Notes under the pieces: generated by a model
What the model was told of the DNA's origin: nothing
The model's input: only the letters and a program-made list of their open reading frames with translations
Databases searched by the model: none
Part shown: positions 4,757 to 64,000 of the stretch, piece after piece
Position numbering within the stretch: position 1 is the first letter of the stretch
Layout: each line of letters opens with the position of its first letter
Assembly (NCBI GenBank): GCA_965198235.1
Contig: OZ240248.1
Location: 3,840,001-3,904,000 of the forward strand
DNA: 64,000 nucleotides
Direction: 5' to 3'
Origin: Candidatus Poribacteria bacterium
GTDB taxonomy: Bacteria > Poribacteria > WGA-4E > WGA-3G
Program-made: the position numbers and the translations under genes

Positions 4757-4903
4757 ATTGATTGCAGCGTCTCTTGATGATTGTTCATGTTCCTATTCCC
4801 GCTGGAATTAACCGAAAACCATCGTGGAACGTAGTGGAACGATGAGCAGATTTTAATAGCTTAAAAAATGGTTTTTGCGTAAACGGGTTGGACTGACTTA
4901 AAT
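4724..4903 (+). repeat. 35-bp exact direct repeat (4724-4758 and 4869-4903) flanking a 110-bp segment that contains a hairpin repeat
   Basis: tggtttttgcgtaaacgggttggactgacttaaat occurs twice. Confidence 0.95.
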
Positions 4904-4961
4904 GGCTATCGGAAACCGTCAGTCGTCAATAACAAGGATGGAAGGGTGAACGGGTGGAACG

Positions 4962-5654
4962 ATGAACAGAAACCCCATAGTTAAAAAATTTTGGATCGGT
5001 TGTTTCCTCTTTTGCGCCGTGACTGGTGTACAGGTGAAGCAGGGTTCGCAGGCTTCCGATGTCCCGATAACTATCGCCCAAATCCATTATAGTGGCGGTG
5101 GTGATTGGTATGGCGACGCGACAACTATCAAAAACTGGCTTCAACTCCTCCGAAATCGAACAGATATTGAGACCGCTGAGGACAGGGTGATTATTAAGTT
5201 GACGGATCATAGCCTTTATCAGTATCCAATACTCTATATGGTAGGACACGGGAATATCCAATTGACTGAAAGTGAGGTTGAGGCATTGCGGGATTATCTC
5301 AAGAGTGGTGGGTTTCTGTTCGCCAATGATGATTACGGGCTTGACAAAAGTTTTCGTCGTGAAATGCAGAGAGTATTTCCAGAGCAGGAACTACAGCCTA
5401 TCCCAAACATGCACCTGATTTATCGCTGTTTCTACGAGCTTCAAGGACTCCCCAAAATTCATGAACACGACGCTGAACCCGCACAAGGATTTGGGCTTTT
5501 TCATGATGGACGTATGGTCGTTTACTATGCCTACAGTGCTGACATCGGTGATGGGCTTGAGGATGCCGATGTACATCCAGACGATACACCCCAGGTCCGT
5601 GAACTTGCGTCGAAAATGGCAGTAAATATTGCTGTATATGCGCTGACGCATTAA
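4962..5654 (+). CDS. DUF4159-family protein
   Basis: GGGDWY, YPILYMVGHG, GGFLFANDDYG, DIGDG motifs; lies between VWA and DUF4175-like genes. Confidence 0.85.
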   Translation: MNRNPIVKKFWIGCFLFCAVTGVQVKQGSQASDVPITIAQIHYSGGGDWYGDATTIKNWLQLLRNRTDIETAEDRVIIKLTDHSLYQYPILYMVGHGNIQLTESEVEALRDYLKSGGFLFANDDYGLDKSFRREMQRVFPEQELQPIPNMHLIYRCFYELQGLPKIHEHDAEPAQGFGLFHDGRMVVYYAYSADIGDGLEDADVHPDDTPQVRELASKMAVNIAVYALTH

Positions 5655-5670
5655 GCAGTATGAGAAAATT

Positions 5671-5794
5671 TAGGACGGACGCACGCTGCTCTTTTGTAGC
5701 ATAACCTGTTAGGTTGTGCACGGGCACTGACTGCGTTGTTTATAGACTTCCTATCTCCCCGTGTGGGCTATGATCTGAAATTGCGTCCGTCCTG
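5671..5794. mobile_element. MITE with AGGACGGACGCA terminal inverted repeats and aaaatt target duplication
   Basis: TIRs at 5672-5683 and 5782-5793; aaaatt on both sides. Confidence 0.75.
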
Positions 5795-5901
5795 AAAATT
5801 AACTGAAGATCGCAAGTCCGAAATGTAATGGAGGACGACTCTACGGAAATTGAGGTCAGTTTCCTAAGCACGCCCATCAAACCGCAAGGTAAAATTAAAA
5901 A

Positions 5902-8900
5902 ATGCACAAACCTACTTCACCAAACCGCAAGGTAAAATTAAATGATGTGAACGCGGCTTACGGAAACCTTATTGATCGATTGCGTGCTATTCGGCGACAG
6001 TGGCGATGGCTCACTTTCTCTGAAGGACTCTTGAAGTGCATCGGTATTCTTGCCCTTGTAATGGCAGGGACACTTATCATTTTAGCGATGAGTTTCCAGT
6101 TATGGCAGTTCCCCTTCTCGCGCTGGATACGCATCGCGATCATCCTATTATCAATAGGTGGTGCCGTCTATGCAGTCATTCGGACATTCGTTCTACCGCT
6201 CTGCAATAAATTGACGGACGCTGCTGTCGCGTCGCGCCTTGAATCGACGCAGACAGAGGCAGCCTTCGCCGCTGAAAATCGGGTTCTCAGTGCCGTCCAG
6301 CTTTGGAAGACTTTGGAGAACAACCGGCTTGGGTATGCCCCAGAATTCGTTGAACATCTGATTGTCCAAGCCAGCCGGGATATGGAGCAGGTTCAGCACA
6401 GACGGGTATTTCAGCCCGAATTTCGGAAGATTAGACGAAATGCAGGTGTCGCTGTCGGCGGAGTCGTCCTGCTCCTCGTTATACATTTCCTTTTACCTAC
6501 CGCGTTTACAGGCTTCGCACAGGCTTTCCAGACCTTACCAAAAACGCTGCAAGACGATCAGGAATATCTAAAAAAGTCCATTCAGATTACAAAAATCCAG
6601 CCCGGTAATATCCAAATTGAACGAGGGACCGATGTTAACGTAACTGCTGAAGTAGGCGGACATCTTGGGGCTCCCGTCGTACTTTACTATCGCGTTGCGG
6701 ATGAATCGGAAACCATCGGTTTCCATCATCAACTTGTTAAAAAACCTTCCATCCTTGATAGCGGGTTGGACTTCACCGAAAACCACCGTGAAACAAAGTC
6801 GAACGGTGACCGGATTCAATCGTTTAAAAAATGGCAATCGCTATCTATGCCCCGTATGTCTACTGATGCCGGACGGAGTTTACAGGTTTCCGAGATTTCG
6901 CTGCCCTACAGCGCGACGCTTGAAAATGTGACACGTCCACTTCAATACTATATTTCGGTCAAAGAGGTAACATCGGAACAGTACCAAATAACAATCAGCA
7001 ATGAACCGATTGTCACGCAGTTCCAGTATCGACTCAATTACCCTGCCTACACGCAACTACAGTCCCAGACGCTTCCAGCAAACGTCGGGGACATCCAAGT
7101 GCTTTTTGGAACAGAGGTTGTGTTCACTGGGGAGAGCAACAAACCGCTTCAGAAGGCACACATCGCTTTTGATGCGTCAGGTGATGTTCCGTTGGAGATT
7201 AGGGAACGACAGTTACAGGGTGCTATTACACAATTAATGAAGGATGAACAGGAAGCCGCCTCCACACCGCAAATAATACAAGGATCTTTTGTTGCTCGAC
7301 AGAGTGAAAACTATCGTATCTACATTACCGACGTTGACGGATTCATGAATCGAGACCCCGTTAACCGGACGATTACCGTTCTCGAAGATGCCGCGCCCGA
7401 TGTTGCTATTGTCGCACCCGCACGCGATACCGTTTTAGACGATGCTATGTTGGTTAAACTTAAGGTAGAGGCAACAGATGACTACGGTATACAGGAACTC
7501 CAATTGGTATACCGCGTTGAGAGTGAAGGTGCCGAGGAGGTAAATGTGCCTTTAAAACGTTGGGAGGTCGAGGGCGCGCGCTCACATAGATCGGTTTTTG
7601 TGGCATACACGTGGGATGTCGATCGGATTGGTATTTTCCCCGGCGAAACGCTCGCGTATTACGTTCAAGCCTTGGATATTGACGATGTCTCAGGACCGAA
7701 TATCGGCAAGTCTCATACCTACACACTCCGCTTTCCATCCCTCTCCGAGTTATACGACGCGCTCGCTACAGAGCAGGAAACCGAACAACGCGGGCTTGAA
7801 GAACTCGTTGACGAACAGGCAGACGCGACCGGTCTGGTTGACACGCTTCTCGATAAAATCAGGAAAAGCCAGGAACTCACCCTTAATGACGAAAACCTGA
7901 TGCAACAGGTCCTTGAAAATCAGAAACAGATTGAGGAGACGGCGAAGCAGCTCATCGAAGACATGCAAGAGACAGCGGAAGAGATGGAACAGAATCAACT
8001 CTTTGACGCTGAGACCATCGAGAAGTATCAAGAACTGCAAGACCTGATGGAGAAAGCACTTTCTGAAGAACATAAGGAGCTTTTACGGAAGTTATCAGAG
8101 GCACTCGCAAAACAGGAGATAGATGAGCAAGAGCGGTCGATGGCGGAAGCGAATCTCAGTCAAGAACAGTTCTTACAACAATTGGAACGTGCCAAATCGC
8201 TCTATGAACAGATTCTCCTCCAACAGGAGCTCGAAGCTGCGGCGAAACAGGCGAAGGCACTCGCCGAACAGCAGAAGCAGTTGATGGATACGTTGGAGTC
8301 GTCGGAACAGTCCGCACCTACAAGCGACCTCGCACAAAAAGAGGACCGGGTGGCAGATGAATTCAAGCAGCTCAGCGGAAAGTTAGAGGAACTCGGCACA
8401 AAAATGGGGGAACTGGCGCAGAATAACGAGAACGCCCCACCGCAAATAGAACGACTTGCGGATGAAATCATTCGACTCAACCAGTTTGCGCACGAGCATA
8501 AACTGTCTGAAATGCTTGAAGCGACGAGTGAGAATCTCCGGGGTGGGCAGAATAGCGAGGCACTCGAATCGGGACGAGACGCGGAACAGACCCTCACAGA
8601 ACTCGCACAGGGCTTGGATAACGCGTTGGCGTTCATGGAAGGGGCAAACGCCAACGAAACCTTGACCGCACTGCAGGAAGCCGTTGAAAGTGGGCTCCAC
8701 CTCTCACATCTTCACGAGAAGGTCCTCACGCAAACGAACGACATCCTTGTCACTGGGCAGTCTGATGCTTACATTTCAAGTGAGATTGTGCGATTGCAAC
8801 AACTCGCCGCTGATGAACTTAGTACAGCAGAGAGTATCACACAGCTTTCCAGCAAACTTTGGGAGTTAGGGAACCGACAGATAGAAGTCCCACCTGAGGC

Positions 8901-9633: not shown

Positions 9634-9755
9634 CAGGACTTACGCAAACGCCTTTGCTTAGCGTTGTAAGCGAAACCTCGCCAGTGGCGCAAGGAGAGAA
9701 AAGAGAAACAGCACAAGTCCTCAATCTCAGTCGCAAATTAACCGGAAACCTGCCT

Positions 9756-11023
9756 GAAATGAAATTATGCCTTAAATGGCATAATTTTGCTTCGCAGTGT
9801 CCCACAAGTTTCCTATAGAGGCTTGCGCAGAATGCTTTACATTTGGAGGGGTTTTTGCTTGGGCGTTTCTTTAGCCCAGGAGCAATAAATTAAAAGATGA
9901 AAACAGCAATTAGTATTGTTGACGATGCGTTTTACATTAACGGAGAAATTACCTATCCGGGACGTGTCTACCAAGGAAATAAAGTTGAAGGGTTACTGCT
10001 CAACACCCGTATGGTGCAAGGCATCTTCGATGATCGGAACCCCGAAACAATACATCTCTGGGAATATCCAGATACCGGTGAATGGGATCCAGAGCGCAAT
10101 ACGCGTGAATTTCTATCCGCGATGCCGACATGGCGCGCACACGGCGTATTGGCGTTCACCATTAACCTCCAAGGCGGCAGCCCCGAAGGGTACTCCAAAG
10201 CGCAACCGTGGCACAACTCAGGGATAGAAGCCGATGGCAGCCTCAATTCAGATTATCTCTCGCGACTTGAACGCATCATTGGCTTTGCGGATACACTCGG
10301 TATGGTTGTTATCCTCGGTTACTTCTATTTTGGGCAGGACCGTCGGCTGACCGACGAAAACGCCGTCAAAAGTGCCGTTGACAACGCAACGGGTTGGCTC
10401 TTTGACAAGGGATACACACATGTTATCGTTGAGGTTAACAACGAGTGCAACGTGAGATACTCACATGAAATTCTGCAGCCTGAGCGGGTGCATGAGTTGA
10501 TCGAACGGGTGAAGGCGAGGACACGTGAGGGCGATAGATTCCTCGTCGGGACGAGTTACGGTGGGGGTAGAGTGCCACTCGAAAATGTCGTCCGTTCCTC
10601 CGATTTCCTACTCGTTCATGGAAACGGCGTGAGCGATCCCAACCGCATCATTGAGATGGTCCAACAGACGCGTGGAGTGCCGGGCTACCGCCCGATGCCA
10701 ATCCTTTTCAATGAAGACGACCATTTTGATTTCGATAAACCCTTAAACAACTGTGTCGCTGCTGTGAGCCAATATGCATCATGGGGTTACTTCGACCCAG
10801 GTGAGAATGACTATTGCAACGGTTACCAATCCGTGCCAGTGCAATGGCAAATCAACACGCCGCGCAAACGCGCCTTTTTTCAGAAGGCTCGCGACATCAC
10901 TGGCTGCTATTCTTGATAGCATCAGAAACTGAGCCTGAAATGTTTTTTAAATAATTGGTCTTTGGACACCGCTCCGAATGTAAGCAAGAACAAATTATGC
11001 CATTTAAGGCATAATTTCATTTC
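9756..11023. repeat. 32-bp exact inverted repeat pair (9756-9787 and 10992-11023) containing the dyad aaattatgcc-N6-ggcataattt
   Basis: Direct comparison; the pair flanks gene 9897..10916. Confidence 0.9.
9897..10916 (+). CDS. Putative glycoside-hydrolase-like TIM-barrel protein
   Basis: Clan GH-A-like NNE motif (VEVNNEC), LVHGN, PILFNED. Confidence 0.6.
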   Translation: MKTAISIVDDAFYINGEITYPGRVYQGNKVEGLLLNTRMVQGIFDDRNPETIHLWEYPDTGEWDPERNTREFLSAMPTWRAHGVLAFTINLQGGSPEGYSKAQPWHNSGIEADGSLNSDYLSRLERIIGFADTLGMVVILGYFYFGQDRRLTDENAVKSAVDNATGWLFDKGYTHVIVEVNNECNVRYSHEILQPERVHELIERVKARTREGDRFLVGTSYGGGRVPLENVVRSSDFLLVHGNGVSDPNRIIEMVQQTRGVPGYRPMPILFNEDDHFDFDKPLNNCVAAVSQYASWGYFDPGENDYCNGYQSVPVQWQINTPRKRAFFQKARDITGCYS

Positions 11024-11197
11024 GCGATGGTTTCTGGTGAAACTCACATCCGACTCTAAAAAGGGACGTGCGGTTCACCAAGAACCTGCCTGAAATGAAA
11101 TGGAAGGCAGCCCAGAGGCCCATAAATTAAAATCCTGCCCGAAACGAAGTGGAGGGCAGAGCGGAGACCCATAGTTAAAAAAAGGAAAATTAAAAAT

Positions 11198-11968
11198 ATG
11201 CCACAAGTTGACCCTATCTATTTTGCAATTGTAATTGCTATTGTTATTATGCTCACAACAAGCGTCCGGATTCTCAAAGAATACGAGCGCGCCGTTATTT
11301 TTCGTCTCGGACGCTTGACTGGGACCCGTGGTCCTGGACTTGTGTTTATGATACCGTTCTGGATTGAGCGGATGCAGCGTATCAGCCTACGGGTTATCGT
11401 CAACGATGTCACCCCACAAGATGTGATTACGAAAGACAACGTTTCCGTAAGCGTCAACGCTGTGCTCACCTTCAGGGTGACCGGACCGGATAGAGCGGTA
11501 ATCGAGGTGGAAGACTTCGGTTTTGCCATCGCTCAGATCGCACAGACGACGCTCCGCAGTGTGCTTGGACGTGCTGAACTCGATGACCTACTCTCAGAGC
11601 GCGAGAAGTTAAATCAGGACTTAGAGGAAATCATCAAGAAGCATTGTGAACCGTGGGGGGTCGAGGTGCTTGCGATGGAGATCAAACACGTGGATCTTCC
11701 TGTTGAGATGCAACGCGCCATGGCGAAACAGGCGGAAGCGGAACGGGAACGGCGTGCCAAAATCACACACGCTGAAGGTGAATTTGAGTCAGCCGAGGTT
11801 CTAACCAATGCCGCTGAAATCCTTAGTAGAACCCCGACCGCTGTGCAGCTCCGATTCCTTCAAGCGTTGGTAGAAGTCAGTGCAGAGAAAAACTCAACCG
11901 TCGTCTTCCCAATCCCGATTGACCTGCTCAGTCCGTTCCTTGAGAAAATAAAAGGTAAAGAAGAATAG
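11198..11968 (+). CDS. SPFH/band 7 (stomatin-like) protein
   Basis: [38 protein letters not shown]. Confidence 0.95.
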
Positions 11969-12031
11969 ACGTTTGCTGGTAGACGCGCGAGATGCGCGCA
12001 GAGAAAGCCAGAGAATAGGAATGGGATTAAA

Positions 12032-13003: not shown

Positions 13004-13117
13004 GGTAATAGTTATCAGTACGCTCACTGCGTTCGCTTTCAGCAGTCAGTACGGGTTGCTACGCAACCCTTTCAGTTAAAGCCTTGGCGCGGCGATAGGT
13101 GTATGAAAAGACTTGGG

Positions 13118-17969: not shown

Positions 17970-19298
17970 ATGAAACGGTTCATCGCTTTATCGCGGAAGG
18001 GTAACGTCGCACCCAGTGGGCTTTTCTTCATTGGGATGCTTCTCGTTTCGTTCGGTTTAGTAGGATGTGGCGGAAAACTCGGAAAAATAGAAGCATCAGC
18101 AGTTGACACGGCGATCGCGGACGCTGAAGCAGCTATTGCAGCGGCAGTAGCGGTTGATGCACCGACACTCGCATCGGATGTGTTTGAAGCTGCGAAAGCC
18201 AACCTTGAGGCTGCAAAAACAGCACTCGACGAGAAAAAAGGAAACGATGCGCTCCGCCTCGCATATCAAGCGATGGCTAATGCCACACTTGCTCGAACGA
18301 ATTCTATCAATATCACTAAAAATTCGGAATTGAATGCATCTATACTCCAGAAGGAAGCTGAAGCAGAATCACTTCGCGAGACTGTTAGTAGTAAAAAGGA
18401 AGAACTCGCAGGGCTTCACTCCGAGATTCAAGACGTTCAGAGCAAGGGAACGCAACTGAAACAGACCGTTCGCGACCTCCAGAAAGAGAATCGTGAGTTG
18501 GGCGATACACGGGCAGCCTACGGGGAACAGGTCGCACAACTCTCTGAAACTTTAGGAGAGATTCAGAGACGTGCTCGACGGGCGGAAACCGAGATTCGCA
18601 ATTACGGTAGAGAGGTTGCAGCACTCCGTCGGAAACTTGAAGTTGCTGACAGAATGGTGAAAGAGGAAGGGTATCAGAAACGGTCGGTTATCGCTGAGAT
18701 AGATTCTCTTAAGAGACAACTCCGTGAACAGGCGCAAATTTATACCGAGAAACTTGCAGAAGCCAACCAGCAAAATGCAGGCGCGAAGCATGCGGAATAT
18801 CTCAAACAGAAAGCACAAGAGGCGCGGGCGTATGTTGACAGTCAACCGGCACTCCATCCTGCTAAGACCGGGCGCATTACGCTTTCTACTGAACAGATTG
18901 CAGCTGGCAAGATGGCACTTAGTAATTGGGAGCGCGCATGGCATGCGAAGAACTTCAATGGACACCTTGCCTACTATGAACCTAATATTATTGCCGACAA
19001 AGTCGTGATTCACGAGAGTAAAGAACATCGAAGTAAAATCGATCTCCAGCAACTCGAAGCAGATCTTCACCAGATGAGCACCCACGCGTGGAACAAAGCC
19101 AAAGCCGATACCGAGGTCGAGGGAGAAAGTGTTATCGGTATCCATCGACTGACCCGGTTGGCGACTCCAGCAGCAGACGAGAACGCTACGGAGCTCTACA
19201 ATATTTGGATTCGCGAAGTCTGGATGCATCAAGTTGGTAACGACTGGAAAATTCATCACGAAATCTGGCAAATCTATGAGAACGTACCAAATTTTTAA
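17970..19298 (+). CDS. Putative lipoprotein: DUF4398-like N-terminus, coiled coil, C-terminal NTF2-like domain
   Basis: Lipobox LVGC; Ala-rich helices; WERAW..K...Y and WKIHHE motifs. Confidence 0.6.
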   Translation: MKRFIALSRKGNVAPSGLFFIGMLLVSFGLVGCGGKLGKIEASAVDTAIADAEAAIAAAVAVDAPTLASDVFEAAKANLEAAKTALDEKKGNDALRLAYQAMANATLARTNSINITKNSELNASILQKEAEAESLRETVSSKKEELAGLHSEIQDVQSKGTQLKQTVRDLQKENRELGDTRAAYGEQVAQLSETLGEIQRRARRAETEIRNYGREVAALRRKLEVADRMVKEEGYQKRSVIAEIDSLKRQLREQAQIYTEKLAEANQQNAGAKHAEYLKQKAQEARAYVDSQPALHPAKTGRITLSTEQIAAGKMALSNWERAWHAKNFNGHLAYYEPNIIADKVVIHESKEHRSKIDLQQLEADLHQMSTHAWNKAKADTEVEGESVIGIHRLTRLATPAADENATELYNIWIREVWMHQVGNDWKIHHEIWQIYENVPNF

Positions 19299-19466
19299 TT
19301 TTTTAATTATGGACTCTTGGGCTACACGACTACAGACAGGTTCTGCCTCACGGTAGAAAATACGCCAGCAGAGCAAAATGTCTGTAGGTTCTGCCTCACG
19401 GCAGAAAATACAATGCCCCTTCTTGCTCCAGCGGAGCAAAATGTCTGTAGAAGCGGAGGTTAAATC

Positions 19467-22222: not shown

Positions 22223-25200
22223 TTGCTGACAACTATCAAACAGATTATGCGCGAATTTTCTTGGAGTTCTTTCAAGTATTTTTGGCAGATACACCTTATC
22301 GTCGCGCTTTGCACTGCTGTGGCGACGGGTGTGCTTGCGGGAGCGTTGATTGTCGGAGATTCTGTGCGAGGAAGCCTGCAGAGCTTAACACAGGAACGAC
22401 TCGGCACAATCCAACATGCCCTCCTCGCTGACCGTTTTTTCCCGCCAGACATCCTATACCGACAGAACACAGTCTCAGCAATCTTGCTGAACGGGACAAT
22501 CGTTGCGCCACAAACGCAGACGCGGGCATCGAGAGTCAACATCCTCGGTGTCCAAGATAGTTTCTTCGCATTTTGGGAAGGAAACGCCGCGCCAAGTCTG
22601 AACAAAACAGATGAACAACCCTTCAATGCCATCGTCATCAACGAGGCACTACAGAACGAACTGAACGTCCAAGTAGGCGACACGCTCCTCGTAAATGTCC
22701 CCCAAGCCGCTGACATCCATCCAGAATTCCTTCTCGGCGAGCGCGACGCATCCGAGGCTATCCAAAGCCTACGCTTGATTATTAGTGAAGTTGTTCCCAT
22801 TGAGAATGCTGGGAGATTTAGTCTTCGCGCACATCAAAGTCTTCCGTTGAACGCTTTCATCGCGCTCCCGGTTTTACAAAGAGTACTTGGGCAACGGAAT
22901 AGGGTAAACGCTCTGTTTACGGCGGAAACAGTCCCAATTTCGTCTGACGATCTCGCGTTGCGCATAGACGCACTCGACTTGGACGTTCAAGAGCACGGCA
23001 CTCACTTTGATGTCCAAAGTCAGCAGTATCTCCTTAAGCCGATTTTTTCTGACCTCGCGCTAACGATCGCTGCTGAAAACCGAATTCCAACGCTCCCGAC
23101 ACTCACCTATCTCGCAAATACGATCTCTGCAAATGGCAAAACCGTTCCGTATTCGACAATCGTCGCACTCCCCACTGATGAAGGGGAGTTTTCTGAACTT
23201 CTTAGCAAAAACACTACAGAGAAACCGCAGATAAACAACGAAAACCAAGCCCGAAATGAAATGGAGGGGTTTTTGCCTGAGCGTTTCTTCAACTCGAACA
23301 CGGAAGACCCTCAAACTTCAAATCCCGTTGTTTATCCGCAAGGAAAATTAGAAAATCCTGAAATTATCCTCAATACATGGACGGCGACCGACCTCGGCGT
23401 GGAAGTCGGTGACGAGATCAGCGTCACATACTATCGCGTTGGGGCGGGAGAAGAATACATCACGGAAACGGCTCTGTTCCGCCTGAAGGGGGTTCTGCCA
23501 ATTGAAGGCATCGCCGCCGATAGAGACCTCATCCCTACTTTTCCCGGTATCCATGATACCGCTGATATGTCTGAGTGGGAATCCCCATTTCCGATCGATT
23601 ACTCACTTATTCGTGGTAAAGACGAAGCGTATTGGGATGAATACGGTGCGACACCGAAAGCGTTTATTCCACTGGAAACCGGTAAGCAACTTTGGAAAAA
23701 CCGATTCGGGGACCTCACCGCCATTCGGTTGGGTATTGCGCTAGACGCAGACTTGCAAGCAACACGCACGCTTTTTGAAACCGAATTCCTCAAAAAGATT
23801 CAACCGGAACAGGTTGGATTCCGATTCTTGGCACTTCAATCTGACGGACTTCAAGCCTCCGCCGGTGCAACAGATTTCGGAATGCTCTTTAGCAGTCTGA
23901 GTGCCTTTATCATTATTGCTGTCGCTTTGTTAGTGGGGATGCTTTTCCGCATCGGTGTAGAGCAACGGTCGCGTGAGATCGGTGTATTACAAGCGATCGG
24001 TTATCCCCTCACCAAAATCCGTCGCCGGTTCCTCTATGAAGGAGGTATCATCGTCGGTATCGGTAGTTTATGGGGTTGTCTGCTTGCGGTCGGGTATGCG
24101 CAATTGATGATATTCGGTTTACAAACGTGGTGGCTCCCTGCTATCGGGACCCCGTTTATGGAACTTCATGTCAGCGTATGGAGCTTGCTAATTGGCGCAC
24201 TTATTTCGTTGGCTGTGGTAATGCTCTCTATCCGCCTGACTGTCCACAAAGTGGGAAAAACTTCCACCGTGTCCCTCCTCGCGGGTAAAACCGATTTTGT
24301 TGAGGCAGCTGTAGGAGACAAACCCAAAAATAGGTGGATGGGACCCCTGAGCTGGTTGGCCGCCGCGATTGGGTTCGGGATAGGTATATGGGTAGAACAG
24401 CCTGTGGTGAGTCTACTGTTTGTAGCACTGTTGGTTATCGGCATCGGGTCGGAGGTATTCAATAAATGGTTAAAATCACAGAATGTACCGAAACAGTTGA
24501 ACAGAGTGCGGTTCGCCATCAGAAACGCTGCGCGACAACCGGGACGGAGCAAGACCTGTGTTACCACAATCGGTATAGCGTGCTGTATCATCGTTGCGGT
24601 GGGGGCAAATCGACACGATGCGCCACCAGAAACGGAATACGCCTTTGTCGCTGAATCCGTGCTCCCTTTGCACCATAACCTGAATACACCGGACGGTAGG
24701 TTTGAACTCGGTTTTTCTGATAAAGCCTCTGAGCTGCTTAGTGCGTCGGAGGTAATTCCGTTTCGTGTGTTGCCGGGTGAAGATGTCAGTTGTCTGAATC
24801 TCTACCAGCCCCAGAAACCGCAAATTTTGGGTGCTTCTGATGCGATGTTAGACGGAGCTCCTTGGATCAGCCTGAATCTGATGTCCACTGAAAACGGTAA
24901 AGTTCCTGCTATCGGCGATGAAAAGTCGCTCCGTTGGATTTTGCATCACAATCCGGACGATGATTTTATCGTCCAAGATGAATTTGGAAAGCCGCTCCGT
25001 CTCGAACTTGAGACGATTGTGAACAGTCTTTTCCAAAGCCAATTAATCATCTCTGAATCCAATTTCACGAAATACTTTCCCAGTCAAAGCGGATACCAAT
25101 TTTTTCTCATCAAAACGCCGCCTGCTTTGCGGGAAGAGACGGCGCAAGTCTTAGAGAAAACATTAGGGGATTACGGTTTTGACCTTGCGTCTGCATCCGC

Positions 25201-25609: not shown

Positions 25610-25833
25610 TGGATCCAAGTCTAAAGACTTGGGAAACTTCCGCAACCGAACGCGGAAGTCCTTTGGAATTAACCGAAAATTGGGGTCTCTGCCCATCACT
25701 GGGGCGGAGCGTGAAACGAAGAGTCATAAAATTAGTACAAAGATTTAGCTTGGAACGAAGTGGAAAGCGGAACCCATGAAAAAACTGTGAAGTACCAAAC
25801 CACGTGCCTTAACCGACAGGAATAGTTAGAAAA

Positions 25834-26412
25834 ATGTCTCGCATTGTATATGCAATCCTACTTGCCTCTTGCCTCCTGATGCAGAGCGGGTGTTCCGATG
25901 ATCCCGATCCAAATACGTCAAGTGCGCTGAATCACATGGAACGGGGATGGCGTTCCTACGAATCAAGGGACTATGCACAGGCATTACTCAGTTTTGAGCG
26001 TGCAATCAACTTCGATGAAGATCTTGCCGATGCACATAACGGCGTGGGATGGAGTCATCTCAGCCTATCGCTAAATCCACCACTGGTACAAGAAGCGTTC
26101 CAGAACGCCGTGCAACTCGATCCGTCAAATGCGGATGCATGGGTCGGACTTGCGAATCTGCTTTTTTTGCGCCACAAAGATACAAACGATTTCCGATCTG
26201 CTATCCGAGCGATTGATAATGCGCTACAAGGTGATGCCCAATATCTCTTCCGGCACGACTATCGTTCCAAAGCCGAACTCTATGTGCTTAAGGCGGCGTG
26301 CTATTACTATCTCGGTGAAGATGCGTCTGCAAAACAGGAAGTAGACAAGGCACTCCAAATTGAAACTACAAATAGGACAGCCATTGTGCTACGAGACCTA
26401 CTCAAAGAATAA
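25834..26412 (+). CDS. TPR-repeat lipoprotein
   Basis: Lipobox QSGC; TPR motifs (ADAHNGVGW, DPSNADAWVGLA). Confidence 0.8.
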   Translation: MSRIVYAILLASCLLMQSGCSDDPDPNTSSALNHMERGWRSYESRDYAQALLSFERAINFDEDLADAHNGVGWSHLSLSLNPPLVQEAFQNAVQLDPSNADAWVGLANLLFLRHKDTNDFRSAIRAIDNALQGDAQYLFRHDYRSKAELYVLKAACYYYLGEDASAKQEVDKALQIETTNRTAIVLRDLLKE

Positions 26413-38347: not shown

Positions 38348-38523
38348 TTATAATGGATAGACAAAAGAGGACTATGAAGTGGCTTTCTGCTTGTGAGCTA
38401 AACAACGCAGCTTGGAACATTGTCCTGCAAGCCTCTATAGGCTTGCACCAGGAAAGCGGATTTGAGCAAGGAACGTCAAAGTCTCATTTCCGGTCGTTTA
38501 ACCGCAAGGAATAATTAAAAAAT

Positions 38524-38997
38524 TTGAAACAGATTATCACACACGCAGATCCAGATCTCGATGCTATCGTTAGCGCATGGATCGCCCAAGATTTTCTCTT
38601 CAAGGAACACGCGTCAGAGGTCCTGTTTGTGAGCCGAAAAGTGCCAGAGAAACTCATGTTGCATGCCGATTGTGTGGTGGATGTCGGAAACACATACATC
38701 CCTGAAAACTACCGATTCGATCACAAGCCTCCCGCATTTCAGAATAGAAATACCACCTGTGCGACTCGGCTCATCTGGGAATATCTACGCGACACCGGTG
38801 CCGATATAGTACACCTTGAACCTTTAGTGCAGATAACATATCAAGGCGATACACATCGGAACTCAGAAGCACTCAAACAGAGCCGAATCGATGGACCGCA
38901 TGCCGAATTAGTCAAACTAAAAGCAGAACATAAAGAAACGACAGAGGTCTATCGACAGATGGTTCTCTGGCTGAGGAGTTATACAAAAAACTTATGA
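38524..38997 (+). CDS. Short MYG1/DHH-like hydrolase
   Basis: THADPDLDA, VDVG, RFDH motifs. Confidence 0.55.
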   Translation: MKQIITHADPDLDAIVSAWIAQDFLFKEHASEVLFVSRKVPEKLMLHADCVVDVGNTYIPENYRFDHKPPAFQNRNTTCATRLIWEYLRDTGADIVHLEPLVQITYQGDTHRNSEALKQSRIDGPHAELVKLKAEHKETTEVYRQMVLWLRSYTKNL

Positions 38998-40305: not shown

Positions 40306-40660
40306 GGATTTCTTCTTTTTAGCCAAAGATGACAAACCTGAAACGTTTTTTAATGATTGGCCTTTGATCACCGTTCTACTACGTTTCGCGGTGGTTTCTG
40401 GTTAAGTACAGAAGGGTTTCATGAGAAAAACGTTTTTTTTTCAGCCCCGTAGGGGCGATATCTGTGTAGAGGAAGGCGGATCTACGGAAGAGAACGTCAA
40501 CCCTCACAGCATGCCAACCGAACCACAAGGAATAATTAGAAATGGATTTCTTCTTTTTCGCCAAAGATCGTAAGCCTGAAACGAAGTGGAAGGCGGATCT
40601 ACGGAAGAGAACGTCAACCCTCACAGCATGCCAACCGAACCGCAAGGAATAATTAAAATA
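40306..40660. repeat. Composite repeat cluster: about 70-bp direct repeat (40470-40540 and 40588-40658), inverted hairpin repeat (40346-40404), REP at 40444
   Basis: ggaaggcggatctacggaagagaacgtcaaccctcacagcatgccaaccgaacc occurs twice. Confidence 0.9.
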
Positions 40661-43654
40661 ATGGAAACGACCCGAATGCCGGATGTAGAGTTGCGCCCCG
40701 GCGAACAACTTCACGGCTTTGAGGTAAAAGCCGTCACACCGATCGACGAATTGCGAGCGGTGACGATTGAATTAGCACATCAACAGAGCGGCGCACGTTT
40801 GCTACACCTCTACACAAACGACACAGAGAATCTCTTCTCCATTAATTTTCCGACCCCACCATCAGACGATACAGGTGTCCCGCATATTCTTGAACACGCC
40901 GTCTTAGCAGGCTCACAAAAATATCCGGTCAAAGAACCGTTTTTTGAAATGATTAAGATGAGCATGGCAACCTTTATCAACGCCATGACGAGTTCGGATC
41001 ATACCTACTATCCCGTAGCGAGCAATGTAAAGAAGGATCTCTTCAACTTGGCAGAAGTCTACTTCGATGCGGTATTCCACCCTCTCCTTACAGAGGAGAC
41101 CTTCAAACGCGAAGGGCACCATCTCGCACCCGTCGATCCCGAAGATCCGACGGGCGATTTAAAGGTAACCGGCATCGTCTATAACGAGATGAAAGGGGTC
41201 TTCTCGGATCCAGAATCACTGTTGTATCGCTCAATGACAAGCCGGCTCCTTCCAGATACGCTTTATGCATGCGAGTCTGGTGGAGATCCTGATGCTATTC
41301 CGGAATTGACGTACGAGCAGCTCAAAAAATTCCACGAAACCTATTATCATCCCAGTAACAGTTACTTCTTTCTCTATGGTGATATTCCGACCAGCGATTA
41401 CCTTTCCTTTCTTGCGGATAAGTTAGATAAGATTCCGAGAAACGAGGCAGGTGATGCCTTACGACCCCTCAGTCCAGAAGTCACCCATCAGCCGAGATGG
41501 AAATCACCACAAGTTGTGATCGATATCTATCCCGTTGGCGCAGATGAACCGCTCACAGAGAAGACGTACCTCATGCTGAGTTGGTTCATCGGGGATGCGA
41601 CCGATCCGGAAGAGATTGTTTTGGGACGTATTTTAAGTCTCATTCTTCTGGGCAATGAAGCCGCACCGCTCCGAAAAGCGATTATCGATTCTAAACTCGG
41701 TGCGGATCTCGTCTACTCCGGTGCCGGTTCTATCGGGGCAGCAGCAACTTTTTACCTTTTACTCAAAGGGAGTGAAACGGATCGCGTCGAGGCGTTTACC
41801 GAACTGGTTACCGATACCCTAACTCAGATTGCGGATTCAGAGATTGATAGTGAGAAGGTGGAAGCGGCGTTCCAGCAAGCAACCTATCACTACCAAGAGG
41901 TCGCGTCGATGTTCCCGCTCCGCATGCTCCAACGTGTCATTGAGGGTTGGATATATGAGAAGGATTCAAACACCTTCCTAAATATGGGTAAAACGCTCGC
42001 TGATGTCCGTCAGCAGTGGCAGGAAAATCCAGCGATTTTCAATGAACTCATCTGTGAACAGCTTATTGAAAATCCACACCGCTTGACAAGCGTGCTATCT
42101 CCAGATAGAGACATGCAGGCGAAAACCGATGCTGAACTCGCTGGACGGATGAAGGAAATACGGGCACAACTGACTGATGAGCAGGTGAAACATATTGCCG
42201 CTGATGCCGCTGAACTCGAACGTCTCAACGAACAGCCTAATTCACCGGAGGCATTGGCGAGACTGCCGCAACTTCAGGTCAGCGATCTACCCGAAAAACC
42301 GAGACATATCCCGACAACGGTCGAGAACGTTGGTGGACGCGCCCTTCTCCGCAATGATGTCTTTGCCAATGGGGTCAACTATCTCGTGCTAAACTTCGAT
42401 TTGCAAGGGTTGCCGGAGCATCTTTGGACCTATCTGCCGAGATACACCGATGCTATTAGCAAACTCGGTGCCGCCGATATGGACTATGCAGAGATAGCGC
42501 ATCGGACATCGGCAGTCACCGGCGGAATAGGATGTTCACCGGGGTTCAGCACACATGCTCTTGACGCAAATCGTTCCTTGCAAAGCATGCGATTTCACCT
42601 CAAAGCACTTGATGGCAAAACGGACGCTGCGCTTGACGTGCTCCATGACCTTATCTTTGATGTAAACCCGCGCGATACCGAACGCCTTCGCGATGTCTTG
42701 GTGCAAGCTGTTGCTGAATACCGCACGGAAATGATTCAGGAGGGGTTGAATACGGCGATTCATCACGCTTCGCGAGGTCTTTCGCCAGAAGCGCATCTCT
42801 CGGAGATTGTTTTCGGTCTCCCGCAACTCCACAACAGCGAAACATTGCTCAGCAGTTTTGACGAACTTAACACCGATCTCATGTGTCATATAGAAGCGAT
42901 TCGCGACTTCCTACTAACCCGCGGGCGGGTGACCGCGAGTTTCACTGGTTCCGACACCACTTTTGAGCAGACGCACACCAGACTCGGTGAATGGCTCAGC
43001 ACGATGCGAGATGAACCGATCCCTTCGGAATCAATTGTGTTTCAACCGTTTGGAACGCCGCCGAGAGAAGGGTTAGCCGGTCCTATTCAGATTGCGTACT
43101 GTGCGCACGTGATGCCGGCACCGCACTATTCGCACCCTGATTCGACATTGCTCAGTATCGGGGCGCATATTTTGCGATTGGATTACATCATGAGCGAGAT
43201 CCGCTTTAAAGGCAACGCTTACGGGGCATATTTCACCTATAGTCCGTTTGATGCTCAACTGTATCAAGCCTCATATCGCGATCCGCACGTCGCGCGGACC
43301 CTCAACGTCTTCGCACAGGCAGCCGACTACGTTAAACAGGTGGAATGGACGCAGACAGATATTGATCGAGCAATTATCGCGACTGCGAAAAGTGCTGAAA
43401 AGCCGATTCGCCCAAGTCAGGCTGCCAGCGACGCACTGGGTCAATACCTCATAGGTCAGACACGCGAAATGCGAGAGGATCGCTACGCACAACTCCGACG
43501 GGCAACGCCTGCTGAGGTAAAACGGGCACTTCTCGAACTCTTAGAAGGAAATCAAGATAAAGCCGCGGTATGTGTCGTTTCAAGTCGTGAAAAACTGGAA
43601 GCCGCAAATCGTGAATTGGCACAACCTCTTGTCATTGAGGACATTATAGCCTAA
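40661..43654 (+). CDS. M16C metallopeptidase (presequence protease/PreP-like)
   Basis: HILEH inverted zinc motif, FINAMT, GIVYNEMKG, YHPSN, NAYGA, SYRDP. Confidence 0.93.
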   Translation: METTRMPDVELRPGEQLHGFEVKAVTPIDELRAVTIELAHQQSGARLLHLYTNDTENLFSINFPTPPSDDTGVPHILEHAVLAGSQKYPVKEPFFEMIKMSMATFINAMTSSDHTYYPVASNVKKDLFNLAEVYFDAVFHPLLTEETFKREGHHLAPVDPEDPTGDLKVTGIVYNEMKGVFSDPESLLYRSMTSRLLPDTLYACESGGDPDAIPELTYEQLKKFHETYYHPSNSYFFLYGDIPTSDYLSFLADKLDKIPRNEAGDALRPLSPEVTHQPRWKSPQVVIDIYPVGADEPLTEKTYLMLSWFIGDATDPEEIVLGRILSLILLGNEAAPLRKAIIDSKLGADLVYSGAGSIGAAATFYLLLKGSETDRVEAFTELVTDTLTQIADSEIDSEKVEAAFQQATYHYQEVASMFPLRMLQRVIEGWIYEKDSNTFLNMGKTLADVRQQWQENPAIFNELICEQLIENPHRLTSVLSPDRDMQAKTDAELAGRMKEIRAQLTDEQVKHIAADAAELERLNEQPNSPEALARLPQLQVSDLPEKPRHIPTTVENVGGRALLRNDVFANGVNYLVLNFDLQGLPEHLWTYLPRYTDAISKLGAADMDYAEIAHRTSAVTGGIGCSPGFSTHALDANRSLQSMRFHLKALDGKTDAALDVLHDLIFDVNPRDTERLRDVLVQAVAEYRTEMIQEGLNTAIHHASRGLSPEAHLSEIVFGLPQLHNSETLLSSFDELNTDLMCHIEAIRDFLLTRGRVTASFTGSDTTFEQTHTRLGEWLSTMRDEPIPSESIVFQPFGTPPREGLAGPIQIAYCAHVMPAPHYSHPDSTLLSIGAHILRLDYIMSEIRFKGNAYGAYFTYSPFDAQLYQASYRDPHVARTLNVFAQAADYVKQVEWTQTDIDRAIIATAKSAEKPIRPSQAASDALGQYLIGQTREMREDRYAQLRRATPAEVKRALLELLEGNQDKAAVCVVSSREKLEAANRELAQPLVIEDIIA

Positions 43655-61260: not shown

Positions 61261-61429
61261 TTTTTAATTATGGTAACTCGTTCTGGTCTTTCCGTTGTCA
61301 AGACCAGCGATTTTTGATGAGATTTGTACCTCTTCGCGAACGGGTACGTGATTTATTGAGTTAACGATAAGAACTTAACAGAGACCGTTTTCGGTTCTCA
61401 CTGCAAAGCAGAACGAAAACGAACGAGCG

Positions 61430-62515
61430 TTAATGGTTAAAATATCTTTTTACACGGGTGCCTATCTGCGTTAAGATTTCATAAGAAATAGTTCCAGCGC
61501 GCTGGGCAATTTCGTCAACCGTGATTTCCGCGTCCCCTTGTTTCCCTACCAGCACGACTTCATCACCAATGGCTACTTTATCAGCAGGTTCCAACTGCAC
61601 CACGCTCACGTCCATGCAAACCCTTCCGATTATCGGGCGGCACATCCCACCAATCAACACTTCACCGATACCGGAGAGTGAGCGAGGATAACCGTCACCG
61701 TAGCCTATCTGCACCATTGCCACGTGGGTTTGATAGAGGGCTTTGTATGTCAATCCGTAACTTACACCCTCCCCCCCTGAAATAGAGCCTGTCCAACCAA
61801 TACGCGCCTTCCATGTAAGAGCCGGTTGTAGTGGGATGGGTTTTTCAGTTCCGGGATAGATACCGTACAGACTCAAACCGGGACGGACTGCGTCGAAATG
61901 GGATTCAGGAACCGCCAGCGATGCTGCGCTGTTCGCCACATGAACCATTTTCCCGCTATTGTTCGCAAGTACAGACGAAAACCGCTTCAACTGAACAGAA
62001 ACAAAACTTTTATCAACCTCATCCGCAGTAGCAAGATGTGTGAAAAGCCCCTCGACTTCAAGTCGCTGCAGCGTCTTCAATCTACTCAGAAACTGAGGTG
62101 CTTCTGTATAGCACACACCACTCCGATTCATTCCGGTGTTGACATTGACGTGAACCTTTGTAGGTGCGGCCTCTGAAGCGACCTTATTCAATGTCGTTGC
62201 AAATTCCCAGTCCCCGATCGTTGGCGTTAGGCTGGATTCAACGATTTGTTCAACCTGCGTAGGTAAGCAACTAAAGAGAATCAGAATCGGTTTGCGAATC
62301 CCCGCTTGACGCAGCGCAATTCCTTCTTCAACCGTTGCGACTGCAAACATATCAGCGACTGGACGCAGCGTTTCTGCTACAGGCACCGCTCCATGTCCAT
62401 AAGCATCTGCTTTCACGACCGCAATCAACTGTTTACCCGTGTGTCTCTTTATTGCTTCAGCATTATGTTTGATTGCCAGCAGATCGATTTCTGTGTGTGT
62501 TCGGAAATAGGGCAT
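61430..62515 (-). CDS. alr: Alanine racemase
   Basis: AVVKADAYGHG, NTGMNRSG, RPGLSLYG, GYGDG, GRVCMD, TISYE. Confidence 0.97.
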   Translation of the reverse strand: MPYFRTHTEIDLLAIKHNAEAIKRHTGKQLIAVVKADAYGHGAVPVAETLRPVADMFAVATVEEGIALRQAGIRKPILILFSCLPTQVEQIVESSLTPTIGDWEFATTLNKVASEAAPTKVHVNVNTGMNRSGVCYTEAPQFLSRLKTLQRLEVEGLFTHLATADEVDKSFVSVQLKRFSSVLANNSGKMVHVANSAASLAVPESHFDAVRPGLSLYGIYPGTEKPIPLQPALTWKARIGWTGSISGGEGVSYGLTYKALYQTHVAMVQIGYGDGYPRSLSGIGEVLIGGMCRPIIGRVCMDVSVVQLEPADKVAIGDEVVLVGKQGDAEITVDEIAQRAGTISYEILTQIGTRVKRYFNH

Positions 62516-62719
62516 CTCGTTTTCTAACTTTTTAAACTATGGGCTCCTGGGCATCACTTCGCTTCGCGATGGTTTTCGGTTAATTCCGACGCGACTGGAG
62601 ATATGTACGATTCTTAAAATTCTGCTTCCGATACACATTCGTTTTTGCATAAGTTCTAAAAATTATACCACAACTTACACAAATTTACGAATGGTTTCAA
62701 ATCTTCGCTAATAGCCGTG

Positions 62720-63508
62720 CTATTGTGCCTCCTGTTTTTGGGAGGAGGTAGCATCCCCTTGGAACCACAAGAATAGCAGGATAAATACAATTGAGTTCGC
62801 CAACAGCATCGTTGAGATAGCGTTAATCTTCGGCGTAATCCCGAACTTCAGTAGCGAATAGATATGTACAGACAGCGTCGTGTAACCAACACCAGCGGTA
62901 AAGAAGGTGATAACAAAATCATCAATGGAGAGCGTAAATGCGAGCAAAGCGCCACCGATAATTCCCGGGGCAATGAGCGGAAGTGTTATCTGCCAAAATG
63001 TCTGCCATTCGTTCGCACCGAGGTCACGGGCTGCCTCTTCTAATGTGTTATCGTAACCTTGTAGGCGCGCCCGCACGACAATAGTAACATAAGCGATGTT
63101 GAAAACACCGTGTGCGATAATTACAGTGATTAAGCCGAGTGGAATACGCACTTGCACGTAAAAGGTCAACAATGCAATCGCCAACACGATGTCTGGAATA
63201 ATAATAGGGAGATAGAGCACTCGAACAAGAGCGGTTCGGAAGCGGAAGCGGTGTCGTTCTATAGCAAGTGCCGCCGCCGTACCGATAACGGTAGCGATAA
63301 CAGTTGCAACACCTGCCACCATCAAGCTATTTCGACAAGCGCGCCACAACGCTGCATCCTCAAACAGCCTCGCATACCAACCGAACGTAAAACCTTCCCA
63401 CACAGAGATATGCTCTCCGCTGTTGAATGAGAACACCACAACCGCTAAAATCGGCATATATAAAAAGAGGTAAACCAATCCTATGTTGGCTTCAAGAACC
63501 CGTTTCAT
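62720..63508 (-). CDS. potC: Spermidine/putrescine ABC permease, PotC-like
   Basis: FLYMPI, EEAARDLGA, FTLSIDDF. Confidence 0.88.
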   Translation of the reverse strand: MKRVLEANIGLVYLFLYMPILAVVVFSFNSGEHISVWEGFTFGWYARLFEDAALWRACRNSLMVAGVATVIATVIGTAAALAIERHRFRFRTALVRVLYLPIIIPDIVLAIALLTFYVQVRIPLGLITVIIAHGVFNIAYVTIVVRARLQGYDNTLEEAARDLGANEWQTFWQITLPLIAPGIIGGALLAFTLSIDDFVITFFTAGVGYTTLSVHIYSLLKFGITPKINAISTMLLANSIVFILLFLWFQGDATSSQKQEAQ

Positions 63509-63628
63509 ATTTTAATTTTGCCCTAACGGGAGTTGTCAGGTTGCCTTAGGCAGTGAACAATGCCTTCAAATATCCGCCTTCGCTTTCGGCTACAGGCTAT
63601 AGTCCTTGGTTAAGTTTTTTAGTTTGTC

Positions 63629-64000
63629 CTAACCGGGGCTGTCAGGTTGCCCTTCATTCTGTTGTAAAGAGCGAAAGTATAACACAGTTCCGACCAGAAC
63701 GATGCCCATCAGCATGAACGAGAGTGCAGAGCCAAAGGGCCAATCTCGCGATGTTTTGAATTGTCTCTCAATAACGTTCCCGATATAACTCACTTTTCCG
63801 CCGCCGAGAAGATCAGGCGTTAGAAATGCACCTACCGTCGGAATAAAAACCAGCATCGATCCAGCAAGGATACCGGGTAGGCTGAGCGGCACGGTTACGT
63901 GCCAAAACGCGCGCCTCGGCGATGCGCCTAAGTCTTGTGCGGCTTCTAACAACGACAAATCTAATTGCTCCAAAGCCGCATATAGTGGGAGTATCATAAA
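63629..64000 (-). CDS. potB: Spermidine/putrescine ABC permease, PotB-like (5' end outside window)
   Basis: MILPLY, EAAQDLGA, TPDLLGG, DWPFGSA. Confidence 0.88.
   Translation of the reverse strand, partial: FMILPLYAALEQLDLSLLEAAQDLGASPRRAFWHVTVPLSLPGILAGSMLVFIPTVGAFLTPDLLGGGKVSYIGNVIERQFKTSRDWPFGSALSFMLMGIVLVGTVLYFRSLQQNEGQPDSPG

Follow-up and report, generated by a model that had tools for sequence, protein, structure and literature searches.

We characterized a short hairpin repeat that is dispersed over a 64,000-nucleotide stretch of the genome of a Candidatus Poribacteria bacterium (assembly GCA_965198235.1, contig OZ240248.1, positions 3,840,001 to 3,904,000; the whole stretch is called the window below). 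The stems of this element differ from copy to copy and covary around one conserved loop, while its tail lies flush with the start or stop codon of an adjacent gene. An earlier sequence-only reading of the window had described a dispersed hairpin conserved in shape, with covarying stems and a conserved loop, and this description was confirmed. Based on our analysis, the element is probably a Poribacteria-wide, non-coding and oriented hairpin repeat of the repetitive extragenic palindromic (REP) or MITE (miniature inverted-repeat transposable element) type, which would spread at the DNA level and be kept for polar effects on gene expression.

Copies were located with a covariance model of the element (R1) and with a 28-nt pattern, TTMACCRRRAACCNNNNNGRAAYRWART, which comprises the 5' flank, five unconstrained positions of the stem and ten bases from the start of the loop, the tail lying outside the pattern. 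A collection of species-representative genomes was scanned with this pattern, yielding at least 98 stretches. Among the matches listed, 88 of 98 were labelled Poribacteria (at least 30 assemblies), three were labelled 'uncultured bacterium' and seven belonged to other phyla. The three metagenome-assembled genomes labelled 'uncultured bacterium' contain genuine copies. The seven matches in other phyla correspond to about the chance number estimated from the information content of the pattern, and R1 gave no match in these seven non-Poribacteria loci. In the stretches fetched around the collection matches (loci L001 and so on, 741 kb in all), R1 detected 121 copies at E<1e-3. Within the window, the loop motif GRAAYGWARTGGA with at most one mismatch was matched eight times compared with 1.41 expected matches, a count reached in 0 of 100 shuffles, and the 28-nt pattern had six exact matches compared with 0.00 expected.

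The element exists in two types, type I of about 70 nt and type II of about 100 nt, with the loop common to both. A type I unit consists of TTMACCRRRAAC, a 6-bp stem of free sequence, the conserved loop, the second stem arm and an AT-rich tail of about 25 nt terminating in (A/C)ATA(G/A)TTAAAAAA. The loop reads G(A/G)A-A(C/T)-G(A/T)A-(G/A)T-GGA and has at its centre a 2-bp stem with a GNA triloop. In type I, the apex is formed by a G(A/T)A triloop on this 2-bp stem, with GAA opposite GGA beneath it. The hairpin of the element spans 25-31 nt. The type I consensus from an alignment of 73 sequences is AGRCGGTTGGAM TTAACCGAAAAC CACCGT GAA AC GAA GT GGA ACGGTG ACCAGATT-TAATAGTTAAAAAAATG. Two further structural assignments were considered and rejected. 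A closing helix TTAAC/GTTAA shows no covariation, as GTTAA is unchanged in copies with TTCACC, and the GAA/GGA internal loop did not fit, by eye, the k-turn or sarcin-ricin motifs. In type II, of which 35 matches were found in the loci and the window, GTAG is followed by a 3-4-bp stem around the common loop, by CGGATCTACGG, by about 35 nt and by CCGCAAGGAAAATTAAAAAATG. In many type II copies, GTAG stands immediately 5' of the hairpin, and many have CTAC on the 3' side. In type I, GTAG is not conserved on the 5' side, where TTMACCRRRAAC is found, and is present solely within the loop of the 26 of 79 copies that have a GTA triloop. The ends assigned previously, with TT(A/C)ACC opening the element and either CCCATA.TTAAAAA or CCGCAAGG...TTAAAAA closing it, are confirmed by the alignment and the type II matches. 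A long form carries about 40 nt in place of the mini-hairpin, including a 10-bp hairpin AAATTATGCC/GGCATAATTT and a T-rich run, so that the basal stem is retained and only the apex is enlarged. In a nested form, a GGTTTTTGCTTGGGYGTTTCT module follows the loop. This module is found at 9830-9870 and 23268-23295 of the window and forms tandem arrays in L054 (about 3000-3200) and L024.

Stem covariation was analysed in a set of 73 copies, drawn from the window and from 69 loci elsewhere. In this alignment, prefiltered for at least five of six stem pairs, 98.8% of stem cells were paired compared with 75.3% in column shuffles, none of 500 shuffles equalling the observed value, and 148 cells were changed on both sides compared with 41 in shuffles. 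Sliding the stem partner by 1-3 columns reduced pairing to 15-56%. Five of the six stem positions alternate among two to four Watson-Crick pair types. An individual example is the compensatory change from A-T to G-C between loci L037 and L072. A looser set requiring at least four of six pairs (79 short-form copies out of 106 pattern matches) contained 449 Watson-Crick and 12 G-T pairs among 474. The inner pair of the loop, at neither position of which the search pattern imposed anything, was CG in 62, UA in 10 and UG in one of the 73 copies and was never unpaired. Both the stem covariation and the alternation of AC-GWA-GT with AT-GWA-AT inside the loop, as proposed by the sequence-only reading, are thus borne out.

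Using R1, five full type I copies were found in the window (4796-4877, 6760-6840 and 11062-11143 on the forward strand; 40336-40417 and 62519-62595 on the reverse strand), along with about ten further partial or hairpin-only matches. In total, the window contains at least 13 full or partial copies, and at least 10 of its approximately 50 genes carry a whole element or part of one. All eight forward-strand hairpins reported previously are present at the coordinates given for them, the loop being enclosed in each by a stem of 3-6 base pairs. Of the five reverse-strand sites reported, those near 40370 and 62560 are full copies and those near 19300 and 61265 only tail-level matches, while the one near 63580 is, by eye, a diverged type II copy that R1 does not detect at E<=10. 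Two long-loop variants, at 9738 on the forward strand and at 10942-11041 on the reverse strand, had been overlooked. The window copies are as follows (ORF, open reading frame):

4808..4870, forward strand: type I copy (R1 match 4796-4877, 85.1 bits), TTAACCGAAAAC, stem CATCGT/ACGATG, loop GGAACGTAGTGGA, tail ...AATAGCTTAAAAAATG; the ATG at the tail starts no long ORF.
4910..4998, forward strand: partial copy consisting of the 3' stem half and the tail CCCCATAGTTAAAAAA (R1 15.7 bits, E 1.2); it encloses the start codon (4962) and first codons of a gene with a DUF4159 domain match.
5800..5904, forward strand: type II copy, hairpin GTCC-GAAATGTAATGGA-GGAC at 5816-5836 (R1 local match 5816-5836), then ...CCGCAAGGTAAAATTAAAAA and the ATG (5902) of a DUF4175 gene.
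6760..6840, forward strand: type I copy, in frame and open in ORF 5902-9633; its hairpin at 6784 has a deviant loop, GAAACAAAGTCGA, which the GRAAYGWARTGGA motif does not catch, yet it scores 78.7 bits with R1.
9738..9899, forward strand: long-loop variant (pattern match) forming an inverted repeat (I1) with 10992-11041; apical module ATTATGCCTTAAATGGCATAAT instead of the mini-hairpin, nested GGTTTTTGCTTGGGCGTTTCT, end AATAAATTAAAAG plus ATG 9897.
10942..11041, reverse strand: long-loop variant (R1 24.6 bits; pattern match 11014-11041), tail toward the stop of gene 9897-10916, 25 nt off.
11062..11200, forward strand: two tandem sense copies, one with stem CTGCCT/AGGCAG and one with stem CTGCCC/GGGCAG (R1 matches 11062-11143, 64 bits, and 11144-11192, 16 bits), extending to the ATG (11198) of an SPFH/band-7 gene.
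19289..19342, reverse strand: tail-like fragment CCATAATTAAAAAATTAAAAATT (R1 15.3 bits, E 1.4); the hairpins beside it belong to another repeat family (D7).
23238..23363, forward strand: type II copy and nested module in an FtsX-like permease ORF, translated as …NQARNEMEG…YPQGKLENPE.
25657..25836, forward strand: degenerate type I copy (25657-25741) and type II-like hairpin, GCTT-GGAACGAAGTGGA-AAGC at 25748-25768 (R1 18.6 and 17.5 bits); the tail reaches the ATG (25834) of a TPR gene.
38440..38526, forward strand: type II tail without hairpin, ...CCGCAAGGAATAATTAAAAAAT (repeats D4 and D16; R1 12.9 bits), ending at TTG 38524.
40336..40417, reverse strand: type I copy (R1 70.8 bits), tail toward the stop of gene 38994-40304, 31 nt off.
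40468..40663, forward strand: duplicated type II unit (repeats D3 and D19), a partial unit at 40468-40545 followed by a full unit with hairpin GCCT-GAAACGAAGTGGA-AGGC at 40574-40594, ending at the ATG (40661) of an M16 peptidase gene.
61261..61333, reverse strand: tail-only fragment …CCATAATTAAAAA (R1 match 61250-61333, 16.2 bits, E 0.93) at the ATG (61260) of an ABC ATPase gene.
62516..62595, reverse strand: type I copy with shortened loop (R1 58.2 bits), leading an alanine racemase gene (ATG 62515).
63509..63610, reverse strand: diverged type II-like copy recognised by eye, GTAGCC-GAAAGCGAA-GGC…GGGCAAAATTAAAAT, leading a permease gene (ATG 63508).

The placement of these copies relative to genes follows a simple rule. 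In 120 of the 127 copies matched by R1, the tail sits flush against a gene boundary. At 90 of them, an ORF of at least 70 codons begins at the tail on the same strand, and at 30 the stop of a convergent ORF lies inside the tail, the TTA of the tail being TAA on the opposite strand. A sense start 13-45 nt off was found for one copy and neither start nor stop for six. In an earlier count, an ORF start was found at the tail in 96 of 127 copies compared with 19 of 127 when the search ran from the 5' end in the other direction. As the tail and the ATG are themselves part of R1, the count was redone with the tail-free pattern. Using 99 pattern matches from Poribacteria loci, 'uncultured bacterium' loci and the window, an ORF start was located within 12 nt of the A-run in 68 and at -1 to +2 nt from it in 51. 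Proteins encoded downstream were scanned with Pfam (72 of 94 ORFs found, orthologous duplicates excluded). Domains begin at residues 1-10 in many of these 72 proteins, for example DapB_N, PGK, ATP-synt, DXP_reductoisom, UDPG_MGDP_dh_N and Pup_ligase, and the terminal ATG is therefore a real start. The TTAAAAA that had been taken for the end of the element does stand at its end, and given the 120 flush copies it is the sequence just before the ATG; the orientation and the boundary rule had been missed. The downstream genes have unrelated housekeeping functions (ProRS, PGK, DapB, RibBA, RibH, ATP synthase gamma, UvrA, DXR and AcrB among them), and no shared pathway, as would be expected of a riboswitch or cis-acting leader, was seen among the 72 proteins.

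On the other side, the 5' end of the element is usually 50-130 nt from the upstream ORF. Many co-directional gene pairs show the order stop codon, antisense copy, short centre, sense copy and ATG. About 20 back-to-back pairs are present among the 121 R1 matches, with about 14 nt between the 5' ends of divergent copies. Partners may be of different stem subfamilies, as in L042, and therefore need not fold on each other. The 50-nt inverted copies (I1) that bracket ORF 9897-10916 are an ordinary case of the boundary rule, one lying in sense orientation at its start and the other in antisense orientation at its stop. This ORF was considered as the transposase of an insertion sequence (IS) bounded by these copies and was rejected, as it has no Pfam match.

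The mobile nature proposed by the sequence-only reading is in agreement with three signs of DNA-level spread, namely filled and empty orthologous sites, in-frame insertions and subfamily replacement. Filled and empty sites were found for L011/L047, L048/L042, L073/L093 and L084/L093. Between ribH and the next gene, L047 has only CCTAAGTTAAAAGTATG while L011 has about 180 nt including a copy. The prolyl-tRNA synthetase gene is preceded in L042 and L075 by a short copy whose stem is CACCGT, and in L030 by a long-loop copy with stem CATTGC and another tail. The 6760-6840 copy is translated in frame in the DUF4175 protein as an insertion of about 35 residues. In an alignment with 22 orthologues, 15 are without an insertion at this place, including one that is 78% identical, and six have an unrelated insertion. 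Some orthologues have another insertion (…QLTTDNHTS) at the loop that holds the focal element in the window protein. For the FtsX-like permease, 23 aligned orthologues showed that the 23238-23363 segment is kept in close relatives, absent from distant ones and otherwise replaced by other insertions. The GGTTTTTGCTTGGGYGTTTCT module in this gene adds eight residues (FLPERFFN) compared with close orthologues.

Once in place, copies retained at orthologous sites evolve much more slowly than synonymous positions. Among 16 informative orthologous pairs that share an element type, 15 showed an identity of 0.87-0.98 in the element compared with 0.51-0.80 at third codon positions of the downstream gene, and in the same pairs the 100 nt upstream were often unalignable, with an identity of about 0.5. 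Stem mismatches were compared by type, since G-U should be much better tolerated than A-C in an RNA that is read from one strand. Sense-start copies contained seven G-T and seven A-C mismatches and all others six and four, respectively. The lack of an excess of G-T over A-C points, weakly in view of the small numbers, to a stem constraint that treats both strands alike, and it fits a constraint at the DNA level without proving one.

We propose the following mechanism. The element would spread at the DNA level, with a trans-acting protein recognising the hairpin shape and the conserved loop and leaving the stem sequence free. Insertion may be aimed at, or tolerated only in, A/T-rich sequence of the TTAAAA type beside ORF boundaries, and orientation would be fixed afterwards by polar effects on expression. 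In the direction that begins at the tail, the hairpin precedes GUUUUCGGUU and could serve as a terminator or 3'-end stabiliser right after the stop codon. Read from the 5' side, transcription would pass, and an unstructured A-rich tract without a Shine-Dalgarno sequence but with a -10-like hexamer would directly precede the ATG. The orientation retained would be the one whose polar effect is harmless or useful. If such polar effects exist, individual copies would therefore be kept by selection as gene punctuation.

Several points weigh against this proposal. The number of copies per genome, probably hundreds, is an extrapolation from the matches listed. Neither the window nor the 98 loci, whose remaining 504 long ORFs were not scanned with Pfam, yielded a mobilising enzyme, and both HUH transposases seen there are flanked by other repeats. 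From the flanks or empty sites, no clean target-site duplication can be defined. TTAAAA-like sequence is present about 40 nt upstream as well as at the tail, and the A-rich tail already exists in some empty sites, which makes the element boundary uncertain. Conservation of orthologous copies could partly result from gene conversion instead of selection on each copy. Folding energies are ordinary, with z-scores of -1.1 to +1.3 for most copies, only two values standing out, -2.7 for the 40340-40405 copy on its antisense strand and -2.4 for the long variant. A role as terminator is weakly supported as well. On the antisense strand of type I, the hairpin, with a loop of 13 nt, is followed by GTTTTCGGTT, and a consensus terminator scan of 4000-12000 flagged no type I copy, its sole terminator-like call being the apical hairpin of the long variant, as in 10942..11041. 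All effects of the element on expression are proposed from sequence features. Concerning the long variant, its apical module (AAATTATGCC TTAAAT GGCATAATTT, then GTCTTTGCTTT) is terminator-like in the sense orientation of the element, at 10992-11017 of the window and in long-variant copies of L007, L030, L073, L076, L081 and L083, and would accordingly fall in the leader of the downstream gene.

Three alternatives, none of them mutually exclusive with a mobile repeat kept for its polar effects, were weighed. In the first, the element is a structured RNA of the 5' untranslated region to which either a global RNA-binding protein or the ribosome (through S1 or a standby site) binds. It would set translation or stability of a very large mixed regulon, the copies being regulatory leaders and not mobile DNA. 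The strict sense orientation and fixed distance to real starts of the 90 start-flush copies fit this explanation, as do the covarying stem with its conserved loop, conservation above that of synonymous sites and the enlargement of only the apex in the long variant, which resembles RNA expansion segments. Further, window genes led by an element have no Shine-Dalgarno sequence at a working distance, unlike many other window genes, which have AGGAG-type sites. We still consider the explanation unlikely. It would not account for the 30 antisense copies on the stop codon of the adjacent gene or for copies within ORFs, and even in sense-start copies G-U mismatches do not exceed A-C mismatches. The functionally mixed downstream genes, the unremarkable fold stability and the lack of an Rfam match (see below) likewise argue against it.

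A portable promoter for leaderless mRNAs is the second alternative. Here, the tail hexamer (A/C)ATA(G/A)T would be a -10 box ending 7 nt before the ATG, the loop would occupy the -35 or activator position, and an upstream antisense copy would terminate the gene before it. Of 104 short copies, 77 have a -10-like hexamer, defined by at least four of six matches with an A at position 2 and a T at position 6, between -13 and -8 relative to the ATG, and alignment positions A62, T63 and T67 of this hexamer are invariant or nearly so. With only about 14 nt separating the 5' ends of back-to-back divergent copies, any promoter must lie inside the elements. Leaderless starts are also plausible in the host, because a canonical TTGACA-18-TATAAT promoter at 2313-2353 of the window ends 5 nt before GTG 2351, which suggests, from sequence, a leaderless or near-leaderless mRNA. 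Other TTGACA/TATAAT-type sites precede 16656 and 35361. Against a sigma-70 promoter within the element, which was rejected, a -35 partner at 16-18 nt is present in 0 of 104 copies, and a promoter scan was blank on the elements, with a total no higher than in shuffles. Sigma-54, ECF and sigma-32 promoters were rejected as well, since no fit by eye to their consensus sequences was seen. The -10 likeness may merely reflect an AT-rich consensus, an identical tail adjoins stop codons in antisense copies, and a promoter would leave the covarying stems unexplained. Overall, a leaderless promoter appears doubtful to us.

The third alternative is a classical REP family mobilised by a dedicated REP-associated Y1 HUH transposase (RAYT) encoded elsewhere in each genome. 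Such systems do exist in Poribacteria. Although the sequence-only reading saw no cognate enzyme in the window, an IS200-like Y1 (HUH) transposase of 159 residues is encoded at 13634-14113 on the reverse strand (PF01797, 1.4e-27), carrying an HIH motif and a YIENQETHH motif. It is bracketed by two hairpin repeats per side (13536-13568 and 13587-13617; 14211-14233 and 14252-14285), an arrangement typical of RAYT-REP systems. These repeats belong to a different family (CTTGCTCCAGCGGAGCAAG ATGTCTATAGAA), with more copies at 19359-19389 and 19422-19452, and to this extent the earlier statement on the enzyme stands. Searching the 98 loci with the window RAYT by tblastn yielded a second Y1 transposase (L066:212-739, PF01797, 4.4e-14), which is flanked by GTAGGAGGGCTTTGTAAGCCCGATC repeats. 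The latter resemble window family D12 (CTGTAGGAGGGATCTCCGAATCC at 34960, 38099 and 51561).

Like the REP, BIME and REPIN repeats of Enterobacteria, Pseudomonas and Stenotrophomonas, the focal element is a short imperfect palindrome found in many extragenic copies, forms subfamilies and occurs in back-to-back pairs that may correspond to inverted doublets. The GTAG directly 5' of many type II hairpins, the CTAC on the 3' side of many of them, the resemblance of the back-to-back pairs to REPINs and the mismatch statistics point in the same direction, and REPs have polar effects on termination and mRNA stability. In contrast to REP repeats, the loop of the focal element is conserved and its stems are free, and type I is without a conserved 5' GTAG. 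The focal hairpin does not border either of the two RAYT genes seen. As a rule, a REP family is confined to one species. The repeat core linked to the window RAYT has five matches in the 64-kb window and one in 741 kb of other Poribacteria loci, compared with 91 matches of the focal loop in the same loci; the focal family, which is phylum-wide, is therefore far wider than a typical species-level REP family. Finally, the focal tail is flush with start or stop codons, and we know of no REP family with copies flush with start codons. A RAYT-driven family is for these reasons not a likely explanation.

A more far-reaching explanation, which we regard as quite improbable, is a copy-and-paste cassette for gene punctuation. 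A dedicated protein would read one hairpin that is installed exactly at ORF boundaries, where it would end transcripts in one orientation and start them in the other, by means of either a -35-less promoter giving leaderless mRNAs or a Shine-Dalgarno-independent leader. If this were true, a single mobile module would supply the expression signals for a sizeable share of the genes of a phylum, and start and stop codons would be recognised by the machinery that inserts it. Chance similarity, low complexity or an assembly artefact can practically be dismissed, considering the shuffle and pattern counts in the window and the conserved copies in at least 30 independently assembled Poribacteria genomes.

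With respect to known families, none of the 4227 models of Rfam 15 matched the element, either at the gathering threshold or, with the limit relaxed to E<=10, in the whole window and in the 231-nt stretch 10980-11210, which holds three copies. A search of the accessible literature on Poribacteria repeats, MITE, REP and palindromic elements, hairpins and RNA motifs found no description of the element. In the accessible part of PMC12985086, Poribacteria are named solely in a genome table. A 'Poribacteria-1' motif was reportedly described by Weinberg et al. 2017, a paper in whose main text Poribacteria are not named. Like Rfam motifs of this kind, the focal element is a phylum-restricted hairpin that is often upstream of functionally mixed genes, but identity with 'Poribacteria-1' is unlikely because no Rfam model matches.

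Other repeat systems were set apart by their general properties. Unlike a MITE, the focal unit has no terminal inverted repeats, since its ends, TTMACC... and ...ATAGTTAAAAA, are not complementary, and no parent IS was seen in the window or loci. Rickettsia palindromic elements (RPE) are small palindromic repeats that can insert in frame into protein-coding genes and be translated. Two focal copies behave alike, whereas most are intergenic at gene boundaries, and the taxa are unrelated; this comparison, too, is one of general properties. Neisseria Correia, pneumococcal BOX/RUP, enterobacterial ERIC and mycobacterial MIRU repeats are modular and have orientation-dependent effects on expression, and MIRUs lie between operon genes in one orientation. 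The focal element shares with them its abundance, its modular build within about 50-150 nt and its location near or inside transcription units. It differs in that single units have no terminal inverted repeats, no TA duplication can be defined, stems covary around one invariant loop and placement at ATG or stop is exact. In contrast to integron attC sites, focal copies lie on both strands among housekeeping genes, and no integrase was found among 51 window proteins scanned with Pfam. The general class of the element is familiar, and calling it an undescribed system, as was done previously, exaggerates its distance from REP, MITE, BOX, Correia and RPE repeats. To our knowledge, no described family unites a loop that is invariant across a phylum, stems that are free in sequence and covary, placement at start and stop codons that is exact to the nucleotide, and translated in-frame copies.

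Poribacteria are uncultivated sponge symbionts whose expression signals are known from sequence alone. A single repeat that precedes or follows a large share of their genes would be of practical help in the annotation of start codons, stop codons and transcription units and is a possible marker for binning and strain typing. The two translated insertions make it a possible source of protein-loop variation. For the biology of mobile DNA, it would represent a hairpin repeat that is recognised by loop and shape and not by stem sequence, and the protein reading it could reveal a new targeting mechanism.

Several further observations were made in the window. Beside the transposase gene, ORF 12032-13027 (reverse strand) encodes HSDR_N and YgjP-like metallopeptidase domains and ORF 13137-13613 (reverse strand) a Fic-like C-terminal domain, so that 12032-13613 may be a small mobile or defence islet. 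CTGACNGCTGATGGCTGACG-type repeats (family D5) lie near gene ends at 22197, 28757, 33811, 33825 and 45159. GCCCC(N)GGGGC hairpins by T- or A-runs (AGCCCCGTAGGGGC…TTTATTTTTT) at 31289-31320, 40443-40465 and 51636-51667 form a small repeat family (I9, I22) and look like ordinary intrinsic terminators. Two tandem GFO/IDH/MocA oxidoreductase paralogues at 32655-33740 and 33842-34927 (both on the reverse strand) are 81% identical over 300 nt. Lastly, 46491-47720 is a 409-residue ORF with no Pfam match, whose DNA has a periodicity of about 303-306 nt (D8; D15 spacing 606), which suggests a product built of repeats of about 101 residues.

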